The translations under genes were made by a program, and so were the position numbers. From a virus (taxonomy: Duplodnaviria; Heunggongvirae; Uroviricota; Caudoviricetes): 47,988 nt of DNA. The notes under the pieces are model-generated. The model was not told where the DNA came from. It saw only the letters and a program-made list of their open reading frames with translations, and did no database searches. Shown here piece by piece: positions 1,209-30,935 of this stretch. Positions within the stretch are counted from its first letter, which is position 1, and each line of letters opens with the position of its first letter. The DNA is taken from positions 1-47,988 of IMG/VR virus record IMGVR_UViG_2579778786_000004. One strand, written 5' to 3'.

Positions 1209-2405
1209 GTGGATAAAATAATTTTACCCACCGGATTTTTACCCATGCTCACCGTTAAGCAGATTGAAGCAGCAAAGCCGAAAGAAAAACCATACCGCCT
1301 TCTCGATGGTAATGGCCTGTACCTTTATGTCCCTGTGTCAGGGAAAAAGGTATGGCAGCTTCGCTACAAGATTGACGGTAAGGAGAAAATCCTGACTGTC
1401 GGAAAATATCCGCTTATGACTTTGCAGGAGGCAAGGGATAAAGCATGGACTGCGAGGAAAGACATCTCGGTTGGCATAGATCCGGTAAAAGCGAAAAAGG
1501 CTTCGTCTAACAACAACTCCTTTAGTGCCATTTACAAGGAATGGTACGAGCACAAGAAGCAAGTGTGGTCTGTAGGGTATGCGACTGAACTTGCCAAAAT
1601 GTTTGATGACGACATTTTACCCATCATCGGCGGTCTCGAGATTCTGGATATTGAGCCGATGCAACTGCTGGAAGTAATCCGCAGATTTGAAGATCGCGGT
1701 GCAATGGAGCGAGCCAACAAAGCCCGCAGAAGATGCGGCGAGGTTTTCCGTTACGCTATTGTCACTGGTAGGGCTAAATATAACCCGGCACCTGACCTTG
1801 CTGACGCCATGAAGGGATACCGCAAGAAAAACTTCCCGTTTCTTCCTGCAGACCAGATCCCGGCATTTAACGAAGCACTGGCAACATTTTCAGGAAGCAT
1901 CGTATCGCTCATTGCGACCAAGGTTTTACGCTATACAGCCCTAAGAACGAAAGAGCTTCGTTCCATGCAATGGAAGAACGTCGATTTTGAAAACAGGATT
2001 ATCACCATCGACGCCAGTGTGATGAAGGGTCGCAAAATTCATGTGGTTCCTATGTCAGACCAGGTGGTTGAACTTCTCACTACGCTAAGCTCAATCACTA
2101 AACCAGTATCAGAGTTTGTTTTTGCCGGTCGCAACGATAAGAAGAAGCCAATCTGCGAGAACGCGGTATTGCTTGTGATCAAACAAATCGGCTATGAGGG
2201 TCTGGAAAGCGGTCACGGATTCAGGCATGAATTCAGCACAATTATGAACGAGCACGAATGGCCTGCTGACGCTATTGAAGTGCAACTGGCACATGCCAAC
2301 GGCGGATCTGTGCGCGGTATTTACAACCATGCGCAGTATCTCGATAAGCGCAGAGAAATGATGCAGTGGTGGGCTGATTACATCGATGGTCGTGCAGGAG
2401 TGTAA
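1209..2405 (+). CDS. intS: Tyrosine recombinase / phage integrase (IntS-like); alternative start at 1245 (MLTVKQIEAAK)
   Basis: 398 aa; N-terminal motif typical of P4-type integrases, C-terminal catalytic region with R...H..R...Y (HANGGSVRGIYNHAQY); adjacent to tRNA. Confidence 0.85.
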   Translation: MDKIILPTGFLPMLTVKQIEAAKPKEKPYRLLDGNGLYLYVPVSGKKVWQLRYKIDGKEKILTVGKYPLMTLQEARDKAWTARKDISVGIDPVKAKKASSNNNSFSAIYKEWYEHKKQVWSVGYATELAKMFDDDILPIIGGLEILDIEPMQLLEVIRRFEDRGAMERANKARRRCGEVFRYAIVTGRAKYNPAPDLADAMKGYRKKNFPFLPADQIPAFNEALATFSGSIVSLIATKVLRYTALRTKELRSMQWKNVDFENRIITIDASVMKGRKIHVVPMSDQVVELLTTLSSITKPVSEFVFAGRNDKKKPICENAVLLVIKQIGYEGLESGHGFRHEFSTIMNEHEWPADAIEVQLAHANGGSVRGIYNHAQYLDKRREMMQWWADYIDGRAGV

Positions 2406-2409
2406 GCCA

Positions 2410-3441
2410 TTACGCGAATTCTTCCACGATCGCCATGCCAGTAGCACCATCACCACCGGTAAATGCCGTACCGGTAAACCCAAGGTCATACGCGCCACCA
2501 CCACCGGATCCGGGAGCTGCGCCAGCAATACCGGCCTGAGAACCCGCCCGGCCACCGCCGCCAAAATACGACGCCCCGCCGTTGCCCGTCAGAAGGCTTG
2601 AGCCTGTCTGTCCATCTGAGCCGGTACCACCGTTGATCCTGATATCTCCGGTCGCCGCCGTACCTCCGTCGCCGCCGGCGGTATTGGACACGCCTGACTT
2701 CACTCCTCCTTTCCCGCCAGGAGCTGAGAACAGGCTGGCAAACGAGGTAGCACCACCATCCGCACCACTTACTGCGCCAACTCCGCCCTTACCACCCTTG
2801 CCGACAGTAATCGCGTAAGAACTGGCAGCAGACAGGTCAACCCATACGATAATGGTCGCACCCGCGCCGCCGCCGGCACCGGAAAAGGTTTCGGTGTTAT
2901 TAGATGCCTGGCATCCGCCACCGCCGCCGCCACCTCCGACCAACGTTACTTTTGCATAACGGGCCAGAGGAGAGCGCGTATAGGTGCCGTTTGCATAGAA
3001 CGCTTTTGGAGCGCCAAGAGAACGCCCGACAAAACCAGAGGAATCAGATATTCCGAGGTTATAACGGGCTTCATTTACCGCATCATCACCGGCATCTTTA
3101 ATTTCTGACAGGTTATTACTGATCTGCAGGAACGATAACAATGATCCGGCTGTCATTAGATTCGCGACAATGTCATTTGTTGACCATACGCGCGCCGTAG
3201 TTCCTTCCTGACCACGAATTACTGTCATCACGTCACCGGATACAGACGTGACGTGCATAATTTCAGAAATTGTTTTCGTGGCCGCGTCGGTTATCGTTAA
3301 TTTGAAATAACTCTGCCCTGATACAGGGGAAGGGAATAAAGCCCCCGCTCCAGTTCCCACGGTAATAACGGTAGCGGACGCGCTAATACCCGCAGCGAGA
3401 ACACTCTTTGCGTTATTATTGGCTAATAGCTTAAGCGCCAT
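2410..3441 (-). CDS. Glycine-rich tail-fibre-like protein (paralog of the fibre at 8291-9076)
   Basis: 343 aa; C-terminal half dominated by GGxGG repeats ending VEEFA, same architecture as the C-terminus of the 8291-9076 fibre (ends YLEEFS). Confidence 0.55.
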   Translation of the reverse strand: MALKLLANNNAKSVLAAGISASATVITVGTGAGALFPSPVSGQSYFKLTITDAATKTISEIMHVTSVSGDVMTVIRGQEGTTARVWSTNDIVANLMTAGSLLSFLQISNNLSEIKDAGDDAVNEARYNLGISDSSGFVGRSLGAPKAFYANGTYTRSPLARYAKVTLVGGGGGGGGCQASNNTETFSGAGGGAGATIIVWVDLSAASSYAITVGKGGKGGVGAVSGADGGATSFASLFSAPGGKGGVKSGVSNTAGGDGGTAATGDIRINGGTGSDGQTGSSLLTGNGGASYFGGGGRAGSQAGIAGAAPGSGGGGAYDLGFTGTAFTGGDGATGMAIVEEFA

Positions 3442-3785: not shown

Positions 3786-4589
3786 TTAAACAATTATGCC
3801 TCGGCGCAGGGCATAGCTTTGAATGTACGCATACATGGAGGCCTCTTCCGCATTCGTCAGCGCTCTGTCCCAGAGCATTGCCAGCATGATCTCCGTTGTT
3901 GCTACCGTAGTCCCAGATGGTCCACGCGTACCAATACGGAGAGTGGCGGTGTTGCGCAGGTCACGAACGTTACCCGATACCAGTGCCTGTGAAGCCTGCG
4001 TGCTCTTGGTGAGGTTTTTTACATAACGGTTGCCGGCGGTTCCTGAAACACCCGTCCCGTCGATTTTCCCCAAAATAGCCCTCCACCAGGTGTCATCTGC
4101 CGCTGCAAGAGAGGTTGGAAGTCCAGACTCTGCAGTTAATACAGCAGAGTTAGCGTTCGATGCGGTTCCGGCGACACCGGTATAGGATGCGCCAACCATT
4201 TGCTGCGTGCCGACAGCCTCAAATACGATACCGCAACCTTGTGCCGTTACCGAGTTACCGCTTTCAGTAATGACATTGTTAAAGTTGGTAAATAGCGGCA
4301 GGCGAACAGTTTGAGGGGCATATATTTTGGCAACAACAATCATCGTTGGGTTTGCCATTTCAGCAATATTAGTGTCGATATAATTGGTTAATGACAGCTG
4401 GGAACTATATTCCGTTACGTGATTTGGTGTTCCTACAATGGTGGGCTGGACTCCGCCAGCCACCTGGTTTACCCATAATCCTTTAGAGCCACCAAACCAC
4501 ACTCCAAGCAGGCCATCCATAACAGGAACATTAATGCCCATTGAAAAAGACTGAGCATTTACATTTTTTCCAATAATTACTGCACCCAT
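3786..4589 (-). CDS. Hypothetical protein, coupled to the upstream esterase-domain gene
   Basis: 267 aa ORF; start codon overlaps stop of the 4592-6925 gene (ATGGGTGCAGTAA context); no recognisable motif. Confidence 0.5.
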   Translation of the reverse strand: MGAVIIGKNVNAQSFSMGINVPVMDGLLGVWFGGSKGLWVNQVAGGVQPTIVGTPNHVTEYSSQLSLTNYIDTNIAEMANPTMIVVAKIYAPQTVRLPLFTNFNNVITESGNSVTAQGCGIVFEAVGTQQMVGASYTGVAGTASNANSAVLTAESGLPTSLAAADDTWWRAILGKIDGTGVSGTAGNRYVKNLTKSTQASQALVSGNVRDLRNTATLRIGTRGPSGTTVATTEIMLAMLWDRALTNAEEASMYAYIQSYALRRGIIV

Positions 4590-4591
4590 TT

Positions 4592-6925
4592 TTAGGCCTC
4601 TTCAGTAGCTGTAATAATGTCAGCGCCGCACCAGTTTTGCAGTGCGTACGGTTTACCATTTAGTTCAGAAATTGATTCTGCTGCTGGCGAGCCGGTTACC
4701 AGTTCCCACTTATATGTTGATAATGAGTCGTCACTATCAGCGATATTGTGAACGCCAGAATGATAGGTTTTATCTCCAAGCCAAATATTTACCGGAGCAA
4801 CCAGTTTTCTTGATGCGACAATTTTAACTACCACGTCAGAAGCTAATGTCACGGTCAAATCTGAACCATACAAAACCCCCTGCGCATCTTTTATGGTAAA
4901 ACCTTTATCGGCAAAACTTGTTGCCACATTTCCTACATATCCGGGAGTAAATTTAACTGGAGGGACGGGAACCGAAAAAGCTATGTTAACTGTATCTTCT
5001 CTAAAAATAGCCTCGCGCATGCGAAAAACTGGCCTTCCGCATCCCCTTTGCACTAAATCCATAACCTTGCCTGCATCGCATCCAAACCAGCGATATGAAT
5101 TAGCAAACATGTGGTTGTCGTTGCCATCAGGATTCACTGGTTTTGGCAAATGTCCCACCGGATTAACAAATGTCGCCAAGCCTGGATTATTGTCGCAGAA
5201 ATCAAGAAGTGCGCGAGACACCGCCATTGAATTTGAATCAGAGGTATACGTGCCACCCGGTTGATAATTATACCAGTGCGGTGGCAGTGTCTGACCAAAA
5301 ATAGCCATCCCATCCGTGCAAATGTTGTTATAAAGCGTATTTAATGCAGTCATATATGCATCGTACGCCGTTGAACCATCGTTCTCGCCCTGCATCCACA
5401 TGAAGCCACAAAAGCGCGATGTCTTTCCTGCAGCATCTGCTGCGGCTTTAATAGCCTGAAGCGCGGTAATTACGTGATTATAGAAGTTGGGAGTCGCTCC
5501 TTTACTGAGCTGCGCGATGGTCTTTCCCCCAACACCACAACATGCGCCGGCAAAGATTCGCGACGAATCATTATCGACCATCAACCGCTGGTTATGCAGC
5601 AACTTACCGAAGTTAAGCCAGCCAGAAAGCGGGGTTTCACCGAAACTACCGGATGAAGGGCTGAGAGTGCCATCATCTAGCTGTCGCACCTCAATTAAGT
5701 TATTGAGATTGCTGTTTCCTACCGGGCCAAACTGATCTGATGTCGTGCCGCTAACGTAATTAGAGCCTCTCGGAGAATTGCCAAGCATCAGGTTCCCGAA
5801 CATGTTCAATACAGAGAGAGGCACCTGGCTATTCGTTCCGACAGAAAAAGACTGTCCATAAACAATATATATGTTTATATCTGCTGTCGGCATCTGTGTC
5901 AGGTAATAACGCTGCCGAATTGCCCCAGCGACCAGAGATAGAGAGTTGTTAGCTATTCTTGCTACAGAATCGGTGCCTGAAACCTCACCATCAACCCTAA
6001 TTTTCGTCTGGAGTTTGAAGTCTTTAGTTAACCTAAGAAAAACAATCCCGTCAGGGTCCTGCATTGTAATAATGTCAGAGCTATTCCCATCAACATAGAA
6101 CCTAATGGCACTTGACTCAATGCCAATATTGTTCCCAAGCATAGAGACAATTTGTTGTATCCAGTCATATTTAACTGTAATACCTAAACCTTTAGCCACT
6201 CCATTATTGAAGCTGGCGAGAATGCGACCATCCTCATCCTGAACAGAAAACCCATCCTCTGTAACTTTAAAAAAAGAAAAAATGGCATTTTCAAGCAACT
6301 CAGGCATAAGAGATACTTTGCTTGTTTTAAACCCTACCCCGCTATCATCCTCTTCTACTTTGGCAGCAATAAATCCGTCTTCATCGCAAAAATCAATAAG
6401 AGTTTCACTGTCTCCATTTTGATAAATGCTTTCTGCTACAGAATCGGCTTTCACTTTTGCCTCATCAACTGCAGCCTGTGACGGCATTTTCCTCCCGGTA
6501 GGTTCCAGGGTCCCTCCGTTATTAATAACTTCAATAGCCAGCGCGCTATCATCCGGGCTGCGGTAATACGTGGCGCTTCCTGTCGGAATATTAGCAATAT
6601 CTGCCTGTGCATCAGCAAGCGTCATGTATTGCTTGCTCAGAGGGATCAGGTTTTGGCGGGCTTCATCAATAACAGCGTCGGTAGCAGCTGCCATTTTTTT
6701 AGTAGCCCCAGTCATCGTATCCCGGGCGTTACCAAAACGATCTATAAAAGTATCGCTTTCGCTGTTCAGGAAATCATCGTACGCCAGGGCGTTATCATTC
6801 AGATCCTTCATGCTATTTGAAGGTCTTGGATTGCCGGTATTATATCTTTTGTCCATACCTGTTCCTGTCTTCATCTTTTCAATGAAGCAATTAAGATTGA
6901 CGCCCCGCCCCTTCAGGGCTAACAT
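4592..6925 (-). CDS. Large prophage protein with carbohydrate O-acetylesterase (SASA/SGNH, DUF303-like) domain, resembling prophage NanS-p-type esterases; likely true start at 6856 (MDKRY, RBS AGGAACAGG)
   Basis: 777 aa; central motifs GQSFSVG and WMQGENDG match the sialate-O-acetylesterase-type signature (GQSN..G / W.QGE.D); located next to tail fibre genes. Confidence 0.6.
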   Translation of the reverse strand: MLALKGRGVNLNCFIEKMKTGTGMDKRYNTGNPRPSNSMKDLNDNALAYDDFLNSESDTFIDRFGNARDTMTGATKKMAAATDAVIDEARQNLIPLSKQYMTLADAQADIANIPTGSATYYRSPDDSALAIEVINNGGTLEPTGRKMPSQAAVDEAKVKADSVAESIYQNGDSETLIDFCDEDGFIAAKVEEDDSGVGFKTSKVSLMPELLENAIFSFFKVTEDGFSVQDEDGRILASFNNGVAKGLGITVKYDWIQQIVSMLGNNIGIESSAIRFYVDGNSSDIITMQDPDGIVFLRLTKDFKLQTKIRVDGEVSGTDSVARIANNSLSLVAGAIRQRYYLTQMPTADINIYIVYGQSFSVGTNSQVPLSVLNMFGNLMLGNSPRGSNYVSGTTSDQFGPVGNSNLNNLIEVRQLDDGTLSPSSGSFGETPLSGWLNFGKLLHNQRLMVDNDSSRIFAGACCGVGGKTIAQLSKGATPNFYNHVITALQAIKAAADAAGKTSRFCGFMWMQGENDGSTAYDAYMTALNTLYNNICTDGMAIFGQTLPPHWYNYQPGGTYTSDSNSMAVSRALLDFCDNNPGLATFVNPVGHLPKPVNPDGNDNHMFANSYRWFGCDAGKVMDLVQRGCGRPVFRMREAIFREDTVNIAFSVPVPPVKFTPGYVGNVATSFADKGFTIKDAQGVLYGSDLTVTLASDVVVKIVASRKLVAPVNIWLGDKTYHSGVHNIADSDDSLSTYKWELVTGSPAAESISELNGKPYALQNWCGADIITATEEA

Positions 6926-6933
6926 CGCCTTAC

Positions 6934-7221
6934 GTGTTTAAACGGTTAAATAAGAGAATGATTTTAATAAATAAATACACCCCTCCAACGCAGGAAGATT
7001 TAGCCAGACTGAAATCCGCACTAAATTACTCCGGAAACCAAATGGCAGGGCTCGCAGGTGTAGCCAGCGATAGCCAATGGCGGAAATACACTGGCGGAGA
7101 GAGCCCCAGGGTAATGTCAAGACACATACTGTTTTATATTGCAGCTCAGCTTGTTCTGTCTGATGAGCAACTTAACAATGTAATAAATAAAATGCGCGAT
7201 ATTGGCGCGGAGATAAAATAA
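6934..7221 (+). CDS. Small putative helix-turn-helix protein, coupled to the downstream acyltransferase
   Basis: 95 aa; segment GNQMAGLAGVASDSQWRKYTGG resembles an XRE-type HTH; stop overlaps the ATG of the next gene (TAATG). Confidence 0.4.
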   Translation: MFKRLNKRMILINKYTPPTQEDLARLKSALNYSGNQMAGLAGVASDSQWRKYTGGESPRVMSRHILFYIAAQLVLSDEQLNNVINKMRDIGAEIK

Positions 7222-8312
7222 TGCTTGGCCTAATAAGGTTTTTTTTGGCATCGTGCGTCATTGCTTTTCACTTAACGGCTCGCATACCTGCACTTGGCAA
7301 CTTTGCAGTGAATTGCTTCTATGTTATTAGTGGTTTTTTAATAACATACATTTTGCATGAAACATACAAGTTCAACTTCTCTATGTTTTGGAAAAATAGA
7401 ATACTGAGGTTATTTCCGGCATATATATTTTTTCTCGTCATGGGCTTTCTTATTATAAAATTAATTCCATCCGCAAAGGAATTCCACTCAAACTGGACAG
7501 GCAATTTCTTACTTGGAGATTTATTAGGAAACATCTTAATCTTCCCCTGGGCTTTCCTTTCTGATAATGCTGTAGCAAATCCATTCGGTGCCTTTTCATC
7601 CATTTATCACTTTGCTATTGATGGTAATAGATTCAGAATAGTCACATCATCATGGTCAGTGGGTGTTGAGATAACATGTTATTTTTTGTTGTGGCTTTTC
7701 ATAGCCCGAAATAAATTTACAGCCATTACGTCGATTCTGCTTTCACTGCTTTATCATGCTTACGTATATGTAGTACACCATTCTTTTGATATGGCGTATT
7801 TCCCATTCCTTGCTGCAACACTTCCTTTTAGCATGGGTTCTCTGGGTTATTTTTCCCATAGAAAATTCAAAGCTATGTATCTTTCTCCACACAAAGCTTT
7901 TTTAATAACATTTATTTGCATCGGGATTTTTATTACCAATTGGCATTTATATACAATTAATGCATTAGGTCAGCACAACATAATACTTTACTACACCAAT
8001 AATGTAATAGCATTGTTTACAACCCTGGTATTATTAAAAATAAAGACAAACATACATCTTGAGAAAATACTCAAGTGGTTTGGTGATCTGGCCTATCCAA
8101 TTTTTCTTTGTCAATATTTTGGTGGATTTCTAGCATGGCTTGCTATTGGTGGTGAAAATCGTGGCTTATCCATCTTTTTATTAGGCTACCCAATATCAAT
8201 TGCACTTGGGATCGTTTGTGTAATATTAATAGACAAGCCACTAATTAAAATTAGAGCAAAAATAAGGGCGGACGCTCAAAGCAAAAATAATCAGGAAAAC
8301 TCTTCAAGGTAA
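7221..8312 (+). CDS. Integral-membrane acyltransferase family 3 (O-antigen/polysaccharide O-acetyltransferase-like, Oac/OafA type)
   Basis: 363 aa, about 10 predicted TM segments; N-terminal FH and FYVISGFLITY...RILRLFPAY motifs typical of acyltransferase-3; markedly AT-rich compared with neighbours. Confidence 0.75.
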   Translation: MLGLIRFFLASCVIAFHLTARIPALGNFAVNCFYVISGFLITYILHETYKFNFSMFWKNRILRLFPAYIFFLVMGFLIIKLIPSAKEFHSNWTGNFLLGDLLGNILIFPWAFLSDNAVANPFGAFSSIYHFAIDGNRFRIVTSSWSVGVEITCYFLLWLFIARNKFTAITSILLSLLYHAYVYVVHHSFDMAYFPFLAATLPFSMGSLGYFSHRKFKAMYLSPHKAFLITFICIGIFITNWHLYTINALGQHNIILYYTNNVIALFTTLVLLKIKTNIHLEKILKWFGDLAYPIFLCQYFGGFLAWLAIGGENRGLSIFLLGYPISIALGIVCVILIDKPLIKIRAKIRADAQSKNNQENSSR

Positions 8313-9076
8313 ACTAAACCATTCGCTCCTTTTCCTGATGAATAGTTACCATTCCCCCCGGCACCACCTGAGCCGGGGAAACCGCCATTATCGCCAGAAC
8401 TACTGAAGTGGCCATTGCCACCTGTTGATGAAAATGCAGATCCTCCAGTCCCGCCAATAAAAGCATCAGAACCATAATACAGACCACCTTGAGATATTCC
8501 GCCAGTAACATTTAAAATGTTCCCGCCACTTCCGATACCTCCAGCAGGAGCTGTAGCCCCGCCACCACTCCCTCCAGTAGCTGAGATTAAACTTCCGAAC
8601 CTTGTATCACCACCATTCCCGCCTTTAGACGAGACACCAGCAGCAACAGCACTGCCACCAGTACCTATCGTCACAGATATAGTTTCTTTATCAGAAATAT
8701 TAAATAACCCTTCCGAAAATCCACCAGCACAACCTCCAGATGCGCCCACACTAACTGGAGCATTCTGGCCACCTCCCCCCGCTCCCCAAACTTTCACCCG
8801 CACTCTTTTCGTCCCTTTAGTTGGAGTGTAAGTCCCTGACTTAGTAAAGGTGACAATATTAAGCAGGCGACCGCCACCAATCGCTTTAAGAACCTGTGAA
8901 TCATCATCAGGATCAAGCTCAAGCCCCGAGCCCTCAACAACGTTTACCAGCTCACGCTGAAAGGTATTCATCATCTCAGCATTAATTATTGTCGGTGAAA
9001 TACCATTAGCGACATTACCATTAGTGTATTCACCATTAGCATCAGCGGTGTCAGTTGTACTGCCAACTTTTCTCAT
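8291..9076 (-). CDS. Tail fibre protein with glycine-rich C-terminal domain
   Basis: 261 aa; N-terminal ISPTIINAEMMNTFQRELVNVV fibre-attachment-type motif, Gly-rich C-terminus; directly downstream of the baseplate genes. Confidence 0.7.
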   Translation of the reverse strand: MRKVGSTTDTADANGEYTNGNVANGISPTIINAEMMNTFQRELVNVVEGSGLELDPDDDSQVLKAIGGGRLLNIVTFTKSGTYTPTKGTKRVRVKVWGAGGGGQNAPVSVGASGGCAGGFSEGLFNISDKETISVTIGTGGSAVAAGVSSKGGNGGDTRFGSLISATGGSGGGATAPAGGIGSGGNILNVTGGISQGGLYYGSDAFIGGTGGSAFSSTGGNGHFSSSGDNGGFPGSGGAGGNGNYSSGKGANGLVYLEEFS

Positions 9077-30779: not shown

Positions 30780-30855
30780 TGGTGCTGTTTAACGGACTTG
30801 AACCGCTACCCATTCGCTTACAAGGCGACCGCTCTATCATTGGAGCTAAAACAGC
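30780..30855 (-). tRNA. Phage-encoded tRNA-Thr (anticodon UGU)
   Basis: 76 nt cloverleaf by hand: perfect 7 bp acceptor stem GCTGTTT/AAACAGC, D-stem GCTC/GAGC, anticodon loop CT-TGT-AA, T-loop TTCAAGT, 3' ACCA; D-loop lacks GG. Confidence 0.6.
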
Positions 30856-30860
30856 ATGTT

Positions 30861-30935
30861 TGGCGGGACAGCGTGGACTCGAACCACGATAAGAAGGTTA
30901 ACAGCCTTCCGTAATGACCTTTATACGACTGACCC
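30861..30935 (-). tRNA. Phage-encoded tRNA-Asn (anticodon GUU), one T-T mismatch in acceptor stem
   Basis: 75 nt: anticodon stem GAAGG/CCTTC, loop CT-GTT-AA identical to E. coli tRNA-Asn loop, T-arm CGTGG-TTCGAGT-CCACG, 3' GCCA. Confidence 0.6.

Follow-up and report, generated by a model that had tools for sequence, protein, structure and literature searches.

The window analyzed here, all 47,988 nucleotides of the IMG/VR virus record IMGVR_UViG_2579778786_000004, is a lambdoid prophage with a Mu-like tail. Two genes that lie reversed in its tail-fiber region, one for a small helix-turn-helix (HTH) protein and one for a family-3 acyltransferase (AT3), probably constitute a compact, self-contained and self-repressed conversion cassette whose enzyme acylates a surface glycan. 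Comparison with related loci indicates that the HTH gene is the constant head of a widespread, so far uncharacterized family of cassettes with varying sugar-modifying cargo. The locus thereby points to a shared control element, made up of one promoter, one palindrome and one 87-amino-acid HTH protein, at the head of conversion genes in prophages of E. coli, Salmonella, Serratia, Klebsiella, Pseudomonas and Burkholderia. Phage-borne genes that modify glycans alter serotype, vaccine targets and phage susceptibility; to our knowledge, their expression from a silent prophage and their mobility have been worked out mostly in a few models, namely gtr and Sf6 oac.

Gene models and orientation of the unit

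The unit comprises two plus-strand ORFs, 6934..7221 and 7221..8312. The long ORFs of the late region, from 2410 to ~30537, are all on the minus strand, so the two-gene unit is antisense to the late operon, as a preliminary description of this DNA had stated. That description gave the HTH gene 95 codons, the length of an ORF read from a GTG. The gene is 87 codons long and starts at the ATG at 6958, because all homologs open with M[R/I]LI and PGAP annotates the same 264-nt coding sequence in strain W21; against both, the GTG ORF is too long. The divergent tailspike gene most likely starts at 6856 and not at 6925, given that the starts annotated by PGAP in W21 and E. coli HS correspond to window positions 6856 and 6958 and that PHROG alignments begin at ORF residues 27–40. 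The 8-nt gap between the tailspike and HTH ORFs is an artifact of taking the longest ORFs, and the preferred starts leave a 101-nt intergenic region into which a promoter fits (Table 1).

The HTH stop codon and the AT3 start codon overlap in the sequence TAATG, with a GGAG Shine–Dalgarno motif 8 nt before the ATG; the Shine–Dalgarno motif of the HTH gene itself is weak, AAGAGA directly abutting its start codon. The promoter and HTH region is identical over 365 nt in E. coli HS. Megablast of the 3.2-kb region against cultured phages gave no match, and NCBIfam, PADLOC and Rfam searches returned nothing for the HTH protein, the AT3 protein or the region.

Table 1. Positions of the cassette elements and neighboring genes in the window
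Feature	Position	Strand	Description
Tailspike gene	4592..6856	−	Conserved N-terminal anchor, 6475..6856; C-terminal part with SASA/SGNH esterase domain
Intergenic region	6857..6957	.	From tailspike start 6856 (−) to HTH start 6958 (+); cassette promoter inside
−35 hexamer TTGACG	6897..6902	+	Promoter scan; in register with family TTGACA
Operator-like imperfect palindrome CCGCCCCTTCAGGGCTA	6905..6921	.	Inside the 17-nt spacer; ortholog of the family palindrome
−10 hexamer TAACAT	6920..6925	+	Promoter scan, 17-nt spacing; family TATTAT/TAATAT
HTH gene	6958..7221	+	87-aa XRE-type helix-turn-helix protein, phrog_20491 family, proposed autoregulator
Coupling junction	7209..7223	+	GGAG 7209–7212, HTH stop TAA 7219–7221, AT3 ATG 7221–7223
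AT3 gene	7221..8312	+	363-aa stand-alone acyltransferase-3 membrane protein, AT-rich cargo
Fiber 3′ (C-terminal, distal) part	8291..8768	−	AT-rich; same exchanged block as the AT3 gene
Glycine-rich fiber gene	8291..9076	−	261 aa, PF21722 Gly_rich_2; convergent with AT3, 22-nt overlap 8291–8312

Composition and acquisition

The two genes had been described as a single, recently acquired unit of lower GC content than its flanks, and this holds for only one of them. The AT3 gene has a GC content of 0.348 and a GC3 of 0.32 (late genes, 0.571 ± 0.032) and is the lowest-GC 1092-bp stretch in the 48-kb window, in which 0.17% of such windows are as low (mean 0.498, s.d. 0.044). Its acquisition is recent, since the corresponding site in near-identical E. 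coli prophages is occupied by another AT3, 49% identical, or by an unrelated gene. The HTH gene, at 0.437, is close to its neighbors (tailspike, 0.451; fiber, 0.477) and recurs as a conserved head in front of many cargos, which speaks against joint acquisition of the pair. The compositional island opens at the HTH/AT3 junction and runs into the 3′ part of the convergent fiber gene, where the codons at 8294–8768 have a GC3 of 0.277. By comparison with the relatives, the acquired DNA is the AT3 gene together with the fiber tip, and the HTH protein appears as a resident regulator.

A moron is an accessory gene in the late region of a prophage that has its own promoter and usually a terminator, is independent of late expression and has an atypical composition. 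The unit shows the reversed orientation, the atypical GC content and a family-conserved promoter-like site, and a promoter and terminator scan of the region found no terminator after the AT3 gene. Composition and orientation support the view of AT3 as a compositionally foreign, reversed gene of the lysogenic-conversion type.

A conserved HTH protein at the head of a cassette family

Homologs of the HTH protein fall into >1000 protein clusters from Gamma- and Betaproteobacteria and share invariant residues; at 50% identity they are covered by 167 representatives. The only profile to match is phrog_20491 (E 3e-30), whose function is not annotated. An AlphaFold2 model built from 150 sequences reached a pLDDT of 91.4 and superseded an unreliable first run with 26 sequences (pLDDT 58.8). 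It is a five-helix bundle in which helices 2 and 3 form the HTH, as in XRE (Cro/C1) proteins, and the model and its XRE-type fold matches, HigA antitoxins among them, bear out the initial 'HTH-like' label. By DSSP, helix 3 spans residues 39–46 (SQWRKYTG), and we propose it as the recognition helix of the modeled protein. A profile search against PDB sequences gave weak matches (E 0.3 or worse), including Aca3 and AcrIF24. It is hardly conceivable that the small ORF arose by chance or forms a 5′ leader and encodes no protein. PGAP does skip it in many genomes, E. coli HS among them, and no Pfam or NCBIfam family matches it at E ≤ 0.01, but the conservation, the phrog_20491 match and the confident fold refute a non-coding origin.

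The HTH gene is the constant element in ~150 related loci, where it lies behind a conserved promoter and palindrome. Among 64 distinct cargos are 19 AT3 proteins, 11 hexapeptide acetyltransferases, 3 GDSL proteins, 3 glycosyltransferases, 1 Wzy and 1 GH43 protein; the types seen in sister cassettes include AT3, LbH acetyltransferases, SGNH, GT2, GT4, GT25 and Wzy_C. The cargo has a GC content of 0.415 as compared to 0.520 for the flanks and is the lower of the two in 70 of 76 loci, with the HTH gene at 0.496. HTH and cargo genes are ≤15 nt apart or overlap in 36 of 76 related cassettes. No same-strand cargo follows the HTH gene in 55 of 168 loci, so the protein must also act, or at least persist, cargo-free. 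In Lonsdalea, the promoter, HTH and AT3 genes are flanked by chromosomal genes; that is, the cassette also occurs outside a phage. The HTH gene may serve as a search handle for new conversion genes through guilt by association, as Aca genes do for anti-CRISPRs.

A gene for a tail-anchored membrane protein of 57–72 amino acids lies directly upstream of the HTH gene in 94 of 147 distinct neighborhoods; none precedes it in the window. Together with the cargo-free loci and the HigA fold matches, this arrangement raises the possibility that the HTH protein is the partner of the membrane protein in a toxin–antitoxin-like, exclusion or abortive module with HigBA gene order, on which the cargo hitch-hikes; the HTH gene of the window would then be a leftover that has lost its membrane gene and exerts no meaningful control over AT3. 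We consider this unlikely. A conserved intrinsic terminator separates the two genes in 81 of 147 neighborhoods, which would yield more 'toxin' than 'antitoxin', and the membrane protein carries no PADLOC or Pfam toxin signature. In addition, the HTH gene persists intact, accompanied by promoter and palindrome, in a number of lineages without the membrane gene (the window, Lonsdalea and loci L133, L125, L124 and L136), and the palindrome lies at the cassette promoter, so that the cargo would be co-controlled anyway. The hairpin that precedes the HTH gene in enterobacterial relatives resembles the palindrome (AGCCCC-N4-GGGGCT), and we considered it as a second operator. Betaproteobacterial relatives retain the hairpin and its T-run with unrelated sequence, and we therefore regard it as a terminator and the likeness as incidental.

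A palindrome in the promoter spacer covaries with the HTH protein

The family promoter reads TTGACA–17 nt–TATTAT and contains in its spacer the palindrome TAGCMCC-N3-GGKGCTA (TAGCACC-N3-GGGGCTA; consensus TAGCACCAAAGGGGCTA). Of 168 loci, 82 contain a single copy of the exact palindrome TAGCMCCNNNGGKGCTA, with ~0.05 occurrences expected by chance in 1.5 Mb, and the copies that were mapped fall within the spacer of a TTGACA-17-TATTAT promoter that precedes the cassette. In the window, transcription is predicted to start near 6932, from a promoter with a weak −10 hexamer. The window palindrome has three mismatches and alone is not significant compared to chance: the outer TA of the left half-site is lost, and the first base of the right core is an A. 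It keeps the inner GCCCC/AGGGC cores and the C/G pair at base 4, and relative to the −35 and −10 elements it is placed exactly as in the conserved family promoter.

Base 4 of the palindrome changes symmetrically in both half-sites in 52 of 54 distinct pairs, and it tracks the residue aligned with S39 of the window protein. Serine, asparagine or glutamine at this position goes with C, arginine with G (six of six cases, in Pseudomonas and Burkholderiaceae) and histidine or glutamate with A (five of five), a covariation that rests on few clades, perhaps four to six independent changes, and to which shared ancestry could contribute. In phiE131, WHKYC replaces WRKYT and the site is GTTCCC-TTA-GGGAAC. 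Symmetric changes of a palindrome that follow one residue at the start of the putative recognition helix argue for autoregulation by the HTH protein through the promoter-spacer site, and the pairing of one helix-3 residue with one base per half-site is a candidate specificity code. Between a dedicated regulator and an unrelated small protein, the two options initially offered for this gene, the evidence favors the former.

An XRE-type DNA-binding protein whose gene lies where the divergent tailspike gene begins, next to a degenerate palindrome, could alternatively work in trans, on the expression of tail fiber or tailspike, on immunity or on polysaccharide genes of the host, while another factor binds the palindrome. 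This seems very unlikely to us, because the exact palindrome is found once per ~10-kb locus, nowhere but at the cassette promoter, the 48-kb window contains no second good site, the covariation of helix-3 residue and half-site points to the HTH protein as the binder, and cassette and palindrome are also found outside prophages.

The acyltransferase and its acceptor

Assignment of the second gene to acyltransferase family 3 stands. PF01757 matches residues 4–336 with 55.3 bits, above its cut-off of 31, over profile positions 6–323 of 326, and phrog_3333 ('O-acetyltransferase') matches as well. The protein retains both motifs that contain essential AT3 residues, R-X10-H in TMH1 (R6-FFLASCVIAF-H17) and RXXR at TMH3 (R60-IL-R63) (PMC9833829). 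A 15-residue Kyte–Doolittle scan, which is crude, gives 11 hydrophobic peaks, in line with ~10 transmembrane helices. Homologs are present in Enterobacterales, Pseudomonas and Legionella, all with PF01757; a search of PDB sequences found nothing.

Some relatives in function have acceptors other than O-antigen: WecH acts on enterobacterial common antigen and OpgC on osmoregulated periplasmic glucans. AT3 might likewise acylate another envelope glycan (enterobacterial common antigen, capsule or colanic acid, osmoregulated periplasmic glucans or LPS core) and perhaps have no role in phage exclusion. Such a specificity would suit the finding that the same AT3, at 98% identity, accompanies tailspikes whose receptor-binding domains differ widely among E. 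coli strains (SGNH, SASA, CotH and TolB), the lack of similarity to Sf6 Oac and the other characterized phage acetyltransferases in tblastn searches at E 1e-3, and the many acceptors of stand-alone AT3 proteins (PMC9833829). We find it rather doubtful, given that the sister cargos are mostly typical O-antigen or LPS modification enzymes and that the cargo is swapped together with the fiber tip, which suggests a link to receptor recognition. The authors of the study on Serratia phage vB_SspM_BZS1 also read their module, the nearest homologous one described, as an O-antigen-type modification, without data (PMC7556043).

Proposed mechanism

In the reading that we prefer, that of a self-repressed conversion cassette, a sigma-70 promoter (TTGACG, 17 nt, TAACAT) would give rise to a bicistronic mRNA that runs antisense to the late operon; the unit would thereby not depend on late transcription and would be expressed in the lysogen. 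The HTH protein, presumably as a dimer, would bind the spacer palindrome and repress its own operon, which would keep the AT3 membrane protein at a low, steady level. We infer this binding and self-repression from family-wide conservation and covariation. AT3 would be translated by coupling, through the GGAG motif and the TAATG overlap. With its ~10 transmembrane segments, it would take an acyl group, probably acetyl, from acyl-CoA in the cytoplasm and transfer it to a glycan in the periplasm or on the cell surface. By analogy, the acceptor is most likely O-antigen or another LPS or surface polysaccharide, and its acylation may alter the receptor seen by phages, those of the same kind included. 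Promoter activity, DNA binding and the AT3 substrate all enter this scheme as features that we infer. In evolutionary terms, the comparison shows promoter, operator and HTH gene to be the resident, conserved head, and AT3 with the fiber tip to be a foreign block swapped in one piece between related prophages.

Comparison with known systems

Phage vB_SspM_BZS1 carries p24 (AT3), p25 (HTH) and p26 (C-terminal TM) between tail genes p23 and p27, and its authors noted that comparable clusters in Serratia prophages invariably include an acetyltransferase (PMC7556043). The module is homologous to the window unit and has the same place and orientation: the HTH proteins are 67% identical, AT3 follows directly behind, an acetylase/esterase-annotated tailspike-like protein lies on one side and Mu-like baseplate genes lie on the other. 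Unlike the window, BZS1 has the tail-anchored membrane gene and a perfect palindrome, and its AT3 is another, distantly related one. The promoter/operator, the cargo variability and the block exchange are absent from the BZS1 paper (PMC7556043).

Sf6 Oac, although dissimilar in sequence, is also a stand-alone AT3 of a temperate phage encoded opposite to the structural genes. We know of no dedicated HTH leader for Sf6 oac. The enzyme is assumed to acetylate the glycan that the phage itself uses as its receptor (PMC9833829, PMC7556043). Judging from the title of Clark et al. 1991 (via PMC9833829), Sf6 oac adjoins int and does not lie in the fiber cluster.

By analogy, the control of the unit may resemble the repression of acr operons by Aca proteins. 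The window-type HTH gene is, however, the first of its operon, whereas aca is the last; the cassette cargos are glycan-modifying enzymes and not anti-CRISPRs; and sequence similarity to Aca proteins is not significant, so we do not class the protein with Aca. A similar analogy could be drawn with C proteins acting on restriction genes (C.AhdI, C.Kpn2I, C.Csp231I, C.BclI and C.Esp1396I), but the window has no C-box sequence, and we found no restriction–modification genes in the window region or the related loci examined, which places the HTH protein outside this class. The cassette instead has a single palindrome in a 17-nt spacer, suggesting plain repression and not an activate-then-repress switch. 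HigA antitoxins share the fold and size, and in relatives a small same-strand gene precedes the HTH gene as higB precedes higA. That gene differs in encoding a tail-anchored membrane protein with no toxin or defense profile and in being separated by a terminator; as the window has no such upstream gene, its unit is not a HigBA-like type II toxin–antitoxin system.

Exchange of the enzyme together with the fiber tip

Homology between the window and two related loci, L092 and L097, ends at 7366 and 7208 and restarts at 8806 and 8769, respectively, and cargo identity and fiber-tip identity co-vary among relatives. These comparisons show that, among E. coli relatives, AT3 is swapped in one block with the C-terminal two-thirds of the fiber gene next to it. 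The constant segment consists of the tailspike N-terminal anchor, the promoter and the HTH gene, and megablast matches in 44 E. coli genomes start at window positions 6475–6585.

More tentatively, the promoter–operator–HTH head, accompanied by the membrane protein in most relatives, may be a portable, self-regulating docking platform and recombination anchor for swapping matched enzyme and fiber-tip blocks, common to prophages of Gamma- and Betaproteobacteria. We regard this as possible, though on balance not probable. If true, a phage would change the 'lock' of its host and its own 'key' in one event. The joint travel of cargo and fiber tip bears on the co-evolution of host range and superinfection exclusion.

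The C-terminal part of the tailspike also varies between E. coli relatives. The window copy matches PF03629 SASA (E 1.9e-6), and tailspikes in the matched E. coli genomes are annotated as SGNH/GDSL hydrolase, sialate O-acetylesterase, CotH or TolB. As for a possible link between acetyltransferase cargo and esterase-type tailspikes, spikes annotated as SGNH or SASA adjoin AT3 in 16 of 25 E. coli records among the matches listed, but family-wide only 4 of 19 distinct upstream large ORFs, some of them not spikes, have Pfam domains of this kind.

The AT-rich stretch and its gene models

The two genes at this locus, encoding a small helix-turn-helix (HTH) protein and a family-3 acyltransferase (AT3), overlap at their stop and start codons and are both read from the + strand. 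All remaining long ORFs between 2410 and about 30537, including those for Baseplate_J and Mu Gp48 (Mu-like baseplate), lie on the − strand, in keeping with the preliminary description of a moron transcribed against the late operon. That observation is real and was largely well read; the moron idea itself is ordinary. The 95-aa length proposed for the small protein needs correction: its gene starts at ATG 6958 and encodes 87 aa, as homologues all begin M[R/I]LI and PGAP annotates this same 264-nt coding sequence in strain W21. The PGAP start of the tailspike gene is 6856, with concordant PHROG alignments, and the intergenic region therefore measures 101 nt, not 8 nt.

A sliding-window computation of GC sets the AT3 gene (GC 0.348, GC3 0.32) apart as the lowest 1092-bp stretch in the entire window (mean 0.498, s.d. 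0.044), with 0.17% of 1092-bp windows as AT-rich; GC3 of the late genes is 0.571 ± 0.032. The low GC ascribed to the whole unit thus holds for the AT3 gene but not for the HTH gene, which at 0.437 is similar to its neighbours.

Features of the locus and its surroundings in the window
Feature	Position	Strand	Basis or remark
tRNA-Arg(CCU)	1009-1083
Integrase gene	1209-2405
Second glycine-rich fibre gene	2410-3441	−	PF21722-like, phrog_863
267-aa gene	3786-4589
Tailspike ORF, 777 aa, SASA esterase domain	4592..6925 (longest ORF)	−	domain match
-35 TTGACG	6897-6902		promoter scan
Spacer CCGCCCCTTCAGGGCTA	6905-6921		in exact register with family alignment
-10 TAACAT	6920-6925		promoter scan, 17-nt spacing
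Small ORF (longest form)	starts 6934, stop TAA 7219-7221	+	ORF scan
GGAG	7209-7212	+	5' of AT3 ATG
AT3 ORF	ATG 7221-7223, end 8312	+	ORF scan
Glycine-rich fibre	8291..9076	−	long ORF
tRNA-Thr(UGU) and tRNA-Asn(GUU)	30780-30935	−	within prophage

The window is a prophage, adjoined by tRNA-Arg(CCU) and an integrase gene; these lie directly beside each other, and the tRNA gene is the likely attachment site. Both fibre genes are of the PF21722-like, phrog_863 type. The second adjoins the integrase gene in an unusually high-GC stretch (0.60-0.62 at 2401-3000), and between it and the 267-aa gene lie 344 nt that hold no long ORF.

The acyltransferase

Assignment of the 363-aa protein to the AT3 class is secure. 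It matches PF01757 far over threshold as well as phrog_3333 ('O-acetyltransferase'), has 11 hydrophobic segments and contains R-X10-H (R6...H17) and RXXR (R60ILR63), both essential in AT3 proteins by mutagenesis (PMC9833829). The absence of an SGNH domain makes it a stand-alone AT3, as are Oac and WecH; it is in concept a moron of the same kind as Sf6-oac, with unrelated sequence. Its relatives are unnamed 'acyltransferase family' proteins of Lonsdalea, Pantoea, Klebsiella, Sodalis and Serratia (44-64% identity) and proteins of Pseudomonas and Legionella (41-49%). We found no close relative in cultured phages, where the best match reaches 28% (a Vibrio phage), and none in the PDB.

A large family of small HTH proteins

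The HTH protein has no match in Pfam or NCBIfam and matches phrog_20491 (unknown function; E 3e-30). Clustering of its family gives at least 1082 groups at 90% identity and 167 representatives at 50% identity; members are mainly 86-95 aa long and share a near-invariant Q-W-R-K-Y-T-G-G, and the window protein retains every family-invariant residue. Such conservation excludes a chance ORF, a reading of negligible probability. The HTH-like character originally noted is borne out by a confident five-helix AlphaFold model built from 150 sequences (pLDDT 91.4), for which AcrIF24, Aca10, HigA, Aca2 and Aca1 hold the top Foldseek ranks. Sequence-profile matches in the PDB, to Aca3 and AcrIF24, are weak and share the stretches PPT..L and (W/F)RKYT(G/A)G.

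Among 5426 complete E. coli genomes, 32 contain a 365-nt segment with the promoter and HTH gene at 98% identity or more, strain HS (NC_009800.1 2067617-2067981) being one of them. E. coli genomes with a 100%-identical copy often carry the 87-aa gene without PGAP annotation; other RefSeq genomes label it 'hypothetical protein' or, in one, 'transcriptional regulator'. An E. coli homologue at 74% identity (P0004) is altered at near-invariant positions (W to C in QWRKY; GG to SN) and looks like a decaying copy.

A putative operator and its covariation with the HTH protein

Nearly all related loci share the upstream sequence TTGACA-nn-TAGCACCAAAGGGGCTA-TTAT, which reads as a -35 element, a 17-nt spacer and a -10 element, with a 7-3-7 palindrome that fills the spacer and extends into the -10. 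The exact pattern TAGCMCCNNNGGKGCTA occurs exactly once in 82 of 168 loci, at the cassette promoter where mapped, against a chance expectation of about 0.05 occurrences per 1.5 Mb. Base 4 of the left half-site covaries with its mirror base in 52 of the 54 distinct protein/site pairs, and it tracks the residue that opens helix 3, which corresponds to S39 in the window protein. Ser, Asn or Gln at this position accompanies TAGC...GCTA; Arg accompanies TAGG...CCTA (6/6, in Pseudomonas and, separately, in Burkholderiaceae), and His or Glu accompanies (T/C)AGA...TCTA (5/5). In Burkholderia phage phiE131, WHKYC replaces WRKYT and the site is GTTCCC-TTA-GGGAAC. Symmetric compensation of this kind is the constraint imposed by a dimeric binder, and Arg-G pairing is a classic contact.

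Because the palindrome lies within an optimally spaced promoter, binding there would repress by occlusion; we infer that the HTH protein represses its own operon and is probably autoregulatory. Action in trans at other sites is very unlikely, given the single site per locus and the covariation of residue and half-site. What is new here is a resident, probably autoregulatory HTH gene from a large and so far uncharacterised family whose putative operator code can be read.

The window site keeps the inner cores GCCCC and AGGGC, together with the C/G pair that S39 would predict, and its left arm is without the outer TA. By itself this site does not reach significance (the window has 5 sites at ≤3 mismatches versus 4.0 expected). 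A further conserved motif, GAGGTAGCG(G/C)A, lies in the 5' leader 15-25 nt 3' of the -10 in enterobacterial and betaproteobacterial loci and is absent from the window leader; it may serve as a further site for a protein or as an RNA element.

A constant head with variable cargo

Family-profile scans yielded 80 genomic and 80 viral loci. The genomic hosts are Enterobacterales, Pseudomonas, Burkholderiaceae, Comamonadaceae and Chromobacterium, and cultured phages such as Serratia BZS1 and Burkholderia phiE131 also carry the family. The recurrent order in enterobacterial prophages is tailspike (−), then promoter, optional small membrane gene, HTH and a downstream gene, or cargo (all +), then fibre, gp48 and baseplate J (all −). 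This cargo changes between loci: the 64 distinct cargos classified include 19 AT3 proteins (most 15-25% identical to that of the window), 11 hexapeptide (LbH) acetyltransferases, three GDSL/SGNH proteins, three glycosyltransferases (GT1/4, GT2, GT25), one Wzy_C and one GH43. That one HTH family heads so many different glycan-modifying cargos is new. Same-strand cargo is missing in 55 of 168 loci. Cargo GC is 0.415 against 0.520 in the flanks, a deficit seen in 70 of 76 loci (Wilcoxon p 2e-12), and HTH genes (0.496) lie near the flanks; HTH and cargo overlap or are separated by ≤15 nt in 36 of 76 cassettes.

In Lonsdalea quercina (L003-L007), promoter, palindrome, HTH and AT3 lie between EAL/GGDEF genes and a ferredoxin-acpS-pdxJ-recO-era-rnc cluster, with no phage genes in these chromosomal flanks. 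One locus from a Lonsdalea sequencing run (L006) has the same left flank followed by a phage tail module, which suggests that the cassette survived the loss of its prophage.

A very common version in Salmonella enterica (L169-L173) consists of the membrane gene, HTH and a 194-aa hexapeptide acetyltransferase; its HTH protein (P0146) is indexed in 747 collection blocks. This cassette is convergent with an HtrL_YibB-family gene and tail-fibre genes and adjoins sopA or, in one genome, SPI-5 genes instead (sopB/ipgD, pipC, pipB, pipA).

Cargo and fibre tip are exchanged together

Two E. coli-type loci have HTH proteins 95-100% identical to that of the window and different cargo, namely an AT3 at 49% identity (L092) and a 295-aa DUF1796/DUF4214 protein (L097). 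DNA homology to the window covers the tailspike N-terminus, promoter and HTH gene, breaks at about 7366 (L092) or 7208 (L097) and resumes at 8806 or 8769, respectively, within the fibre gene. The exchanged block therefore comprises the cargo and, from the convergent fibre, the C-terminal two-thirds; the fibre and AT3 genes share 22 nt at their 3' ends. In agreement, the fibre codons within nucleotides 8294-8768 have a GC3 of 0.277, as low as the AT3 gene. Recent acquisition, proposed for both genes, accordingly fits the AT3 gene, foreign in composition and swapped, but not the HTH gene, which is shared while cargo differs. Among locus pairs with conserved fibre N-termini, the tip differed in 50/50 pairs with different cargo and was the same in 24/24 pairs with the same cargo, the latter mostly near-identical E. 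coli loci. This joint movement of cargo and fibre tip is also new.

The tailspike C-terminal domain varies independently, being annotated as SGNH/GDSL, sialate O-acetylesterase, CotH or TolB beside the same AT3. The constancy of AT3 beside differing tailspikes would suit an acceptor glycan distinct from O-antigen; the cargo census, which is of LPS type, and the linkage of cargo to fibre tip speak against this reading, which we consider rather unlikely. We favour a scheme in which the promoter fires in the lysogen and an HTH dimer on the palindrome keeps expression of the operon low and steady, sensible for an approximately 10-TM membrane protein and a unit transcribing against the late operon. 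AT3, translated by coupling, would acylate a glycan of the cell surface, with O-antigen or LPS the likeliest acceptor, and so change how the cell is recognised by phages equipped with the co-transferred fibre tip or with esterase-type spikes. In the lytic phase, transcription of the late operon can reach the tailspike gene only by passing through the cassette in antisense orientation.

In the window tailspike (4592-6856, −), ORF residues 461-538 match a SASA/SGNH carbohydrate-esterase domain (PF03629). Its E. coli relatives share the N-terminal 95-125 residues and join them to C-terminal domains of very different kinds, annotated as SGNH/GDSL hydrolase, sialate O-acetylesterase, CotH kinase or TolB, and among the E. 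coli matches listed an esterase-type spike is paired with AT3 in 16 of 25 records. A deacetylase/acetylase pairing of a similar sort has been proposed for phage BZS1.

The nearest described module is p24-p25-p26 of Serratia phage BZS1, whose authors noted its orientation, HTH motif and C-terminal membrane segment (PMC7556043); a full-text literature search found only this description of such an arrangement. The cassette head appears functionally similar to acr-aca operons, in which the Aca repressor acts on an inverted repeat. Restriction-modification controller proteins offer a comparable parallel, with a small HTH gene first and an overlapping enzyme gene. Since the linked genes differ, the cassette HTH belongs to neither family.

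A membrane gene and terminator in relatives

Most relatives contain a small membrane gene and a terminator that the window is without. The gene, between cassette promoter and HTH in 94 of 147 distinct neighbourhoods (about 4790-4963 in L103, 4790-4963 in phage BZS1, 4523-4759 in phiE131), encodes a tail-anchored protein of 57-72 aa with a coiled N-terminus and a single C-terminal transmembrane helix (for example MTNDMTTAELEKIHAEIAKLMAETAKINRETMWYPVAVATGLIGAVATVTTIIIKFI). This protein is kept from Enterobacterales to Burkholderia and Pseudomonas and matches phrog_6330 and phrog_9071 (unknown function), with no match in Pfam, NCBIfam or PADLOC. By analogy with Iap of phage D3, one might speculate that it inhibits a host O-antigen enzyme. 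It could also be the HTH protein's primary partner in a toxin-antitoxin or exclusion pair; this is unlikely, as a conserved terminator separates the two genes and intact HTH cassettes exist without the membrane gene.

That terminator, an intrinsic hairpin with a T-run, is present in 81 of 147 neighbourhoods (for example L103, L113, L036 and L049). It lies 10-40 nt ahead of the HTH start codon and ends some 12 nt short of that ATG, so that HTH and cargo would be expressed by read-through in those relatives. Its sequence is clade-specific (AAGCCCCGAAAGGGGCTTTTT; GGCCCGCCGCAAGGCGGGTTTCT; AGCCCCGCGAAAGCGGGGTTTCTC), and the hairpin is conserved.
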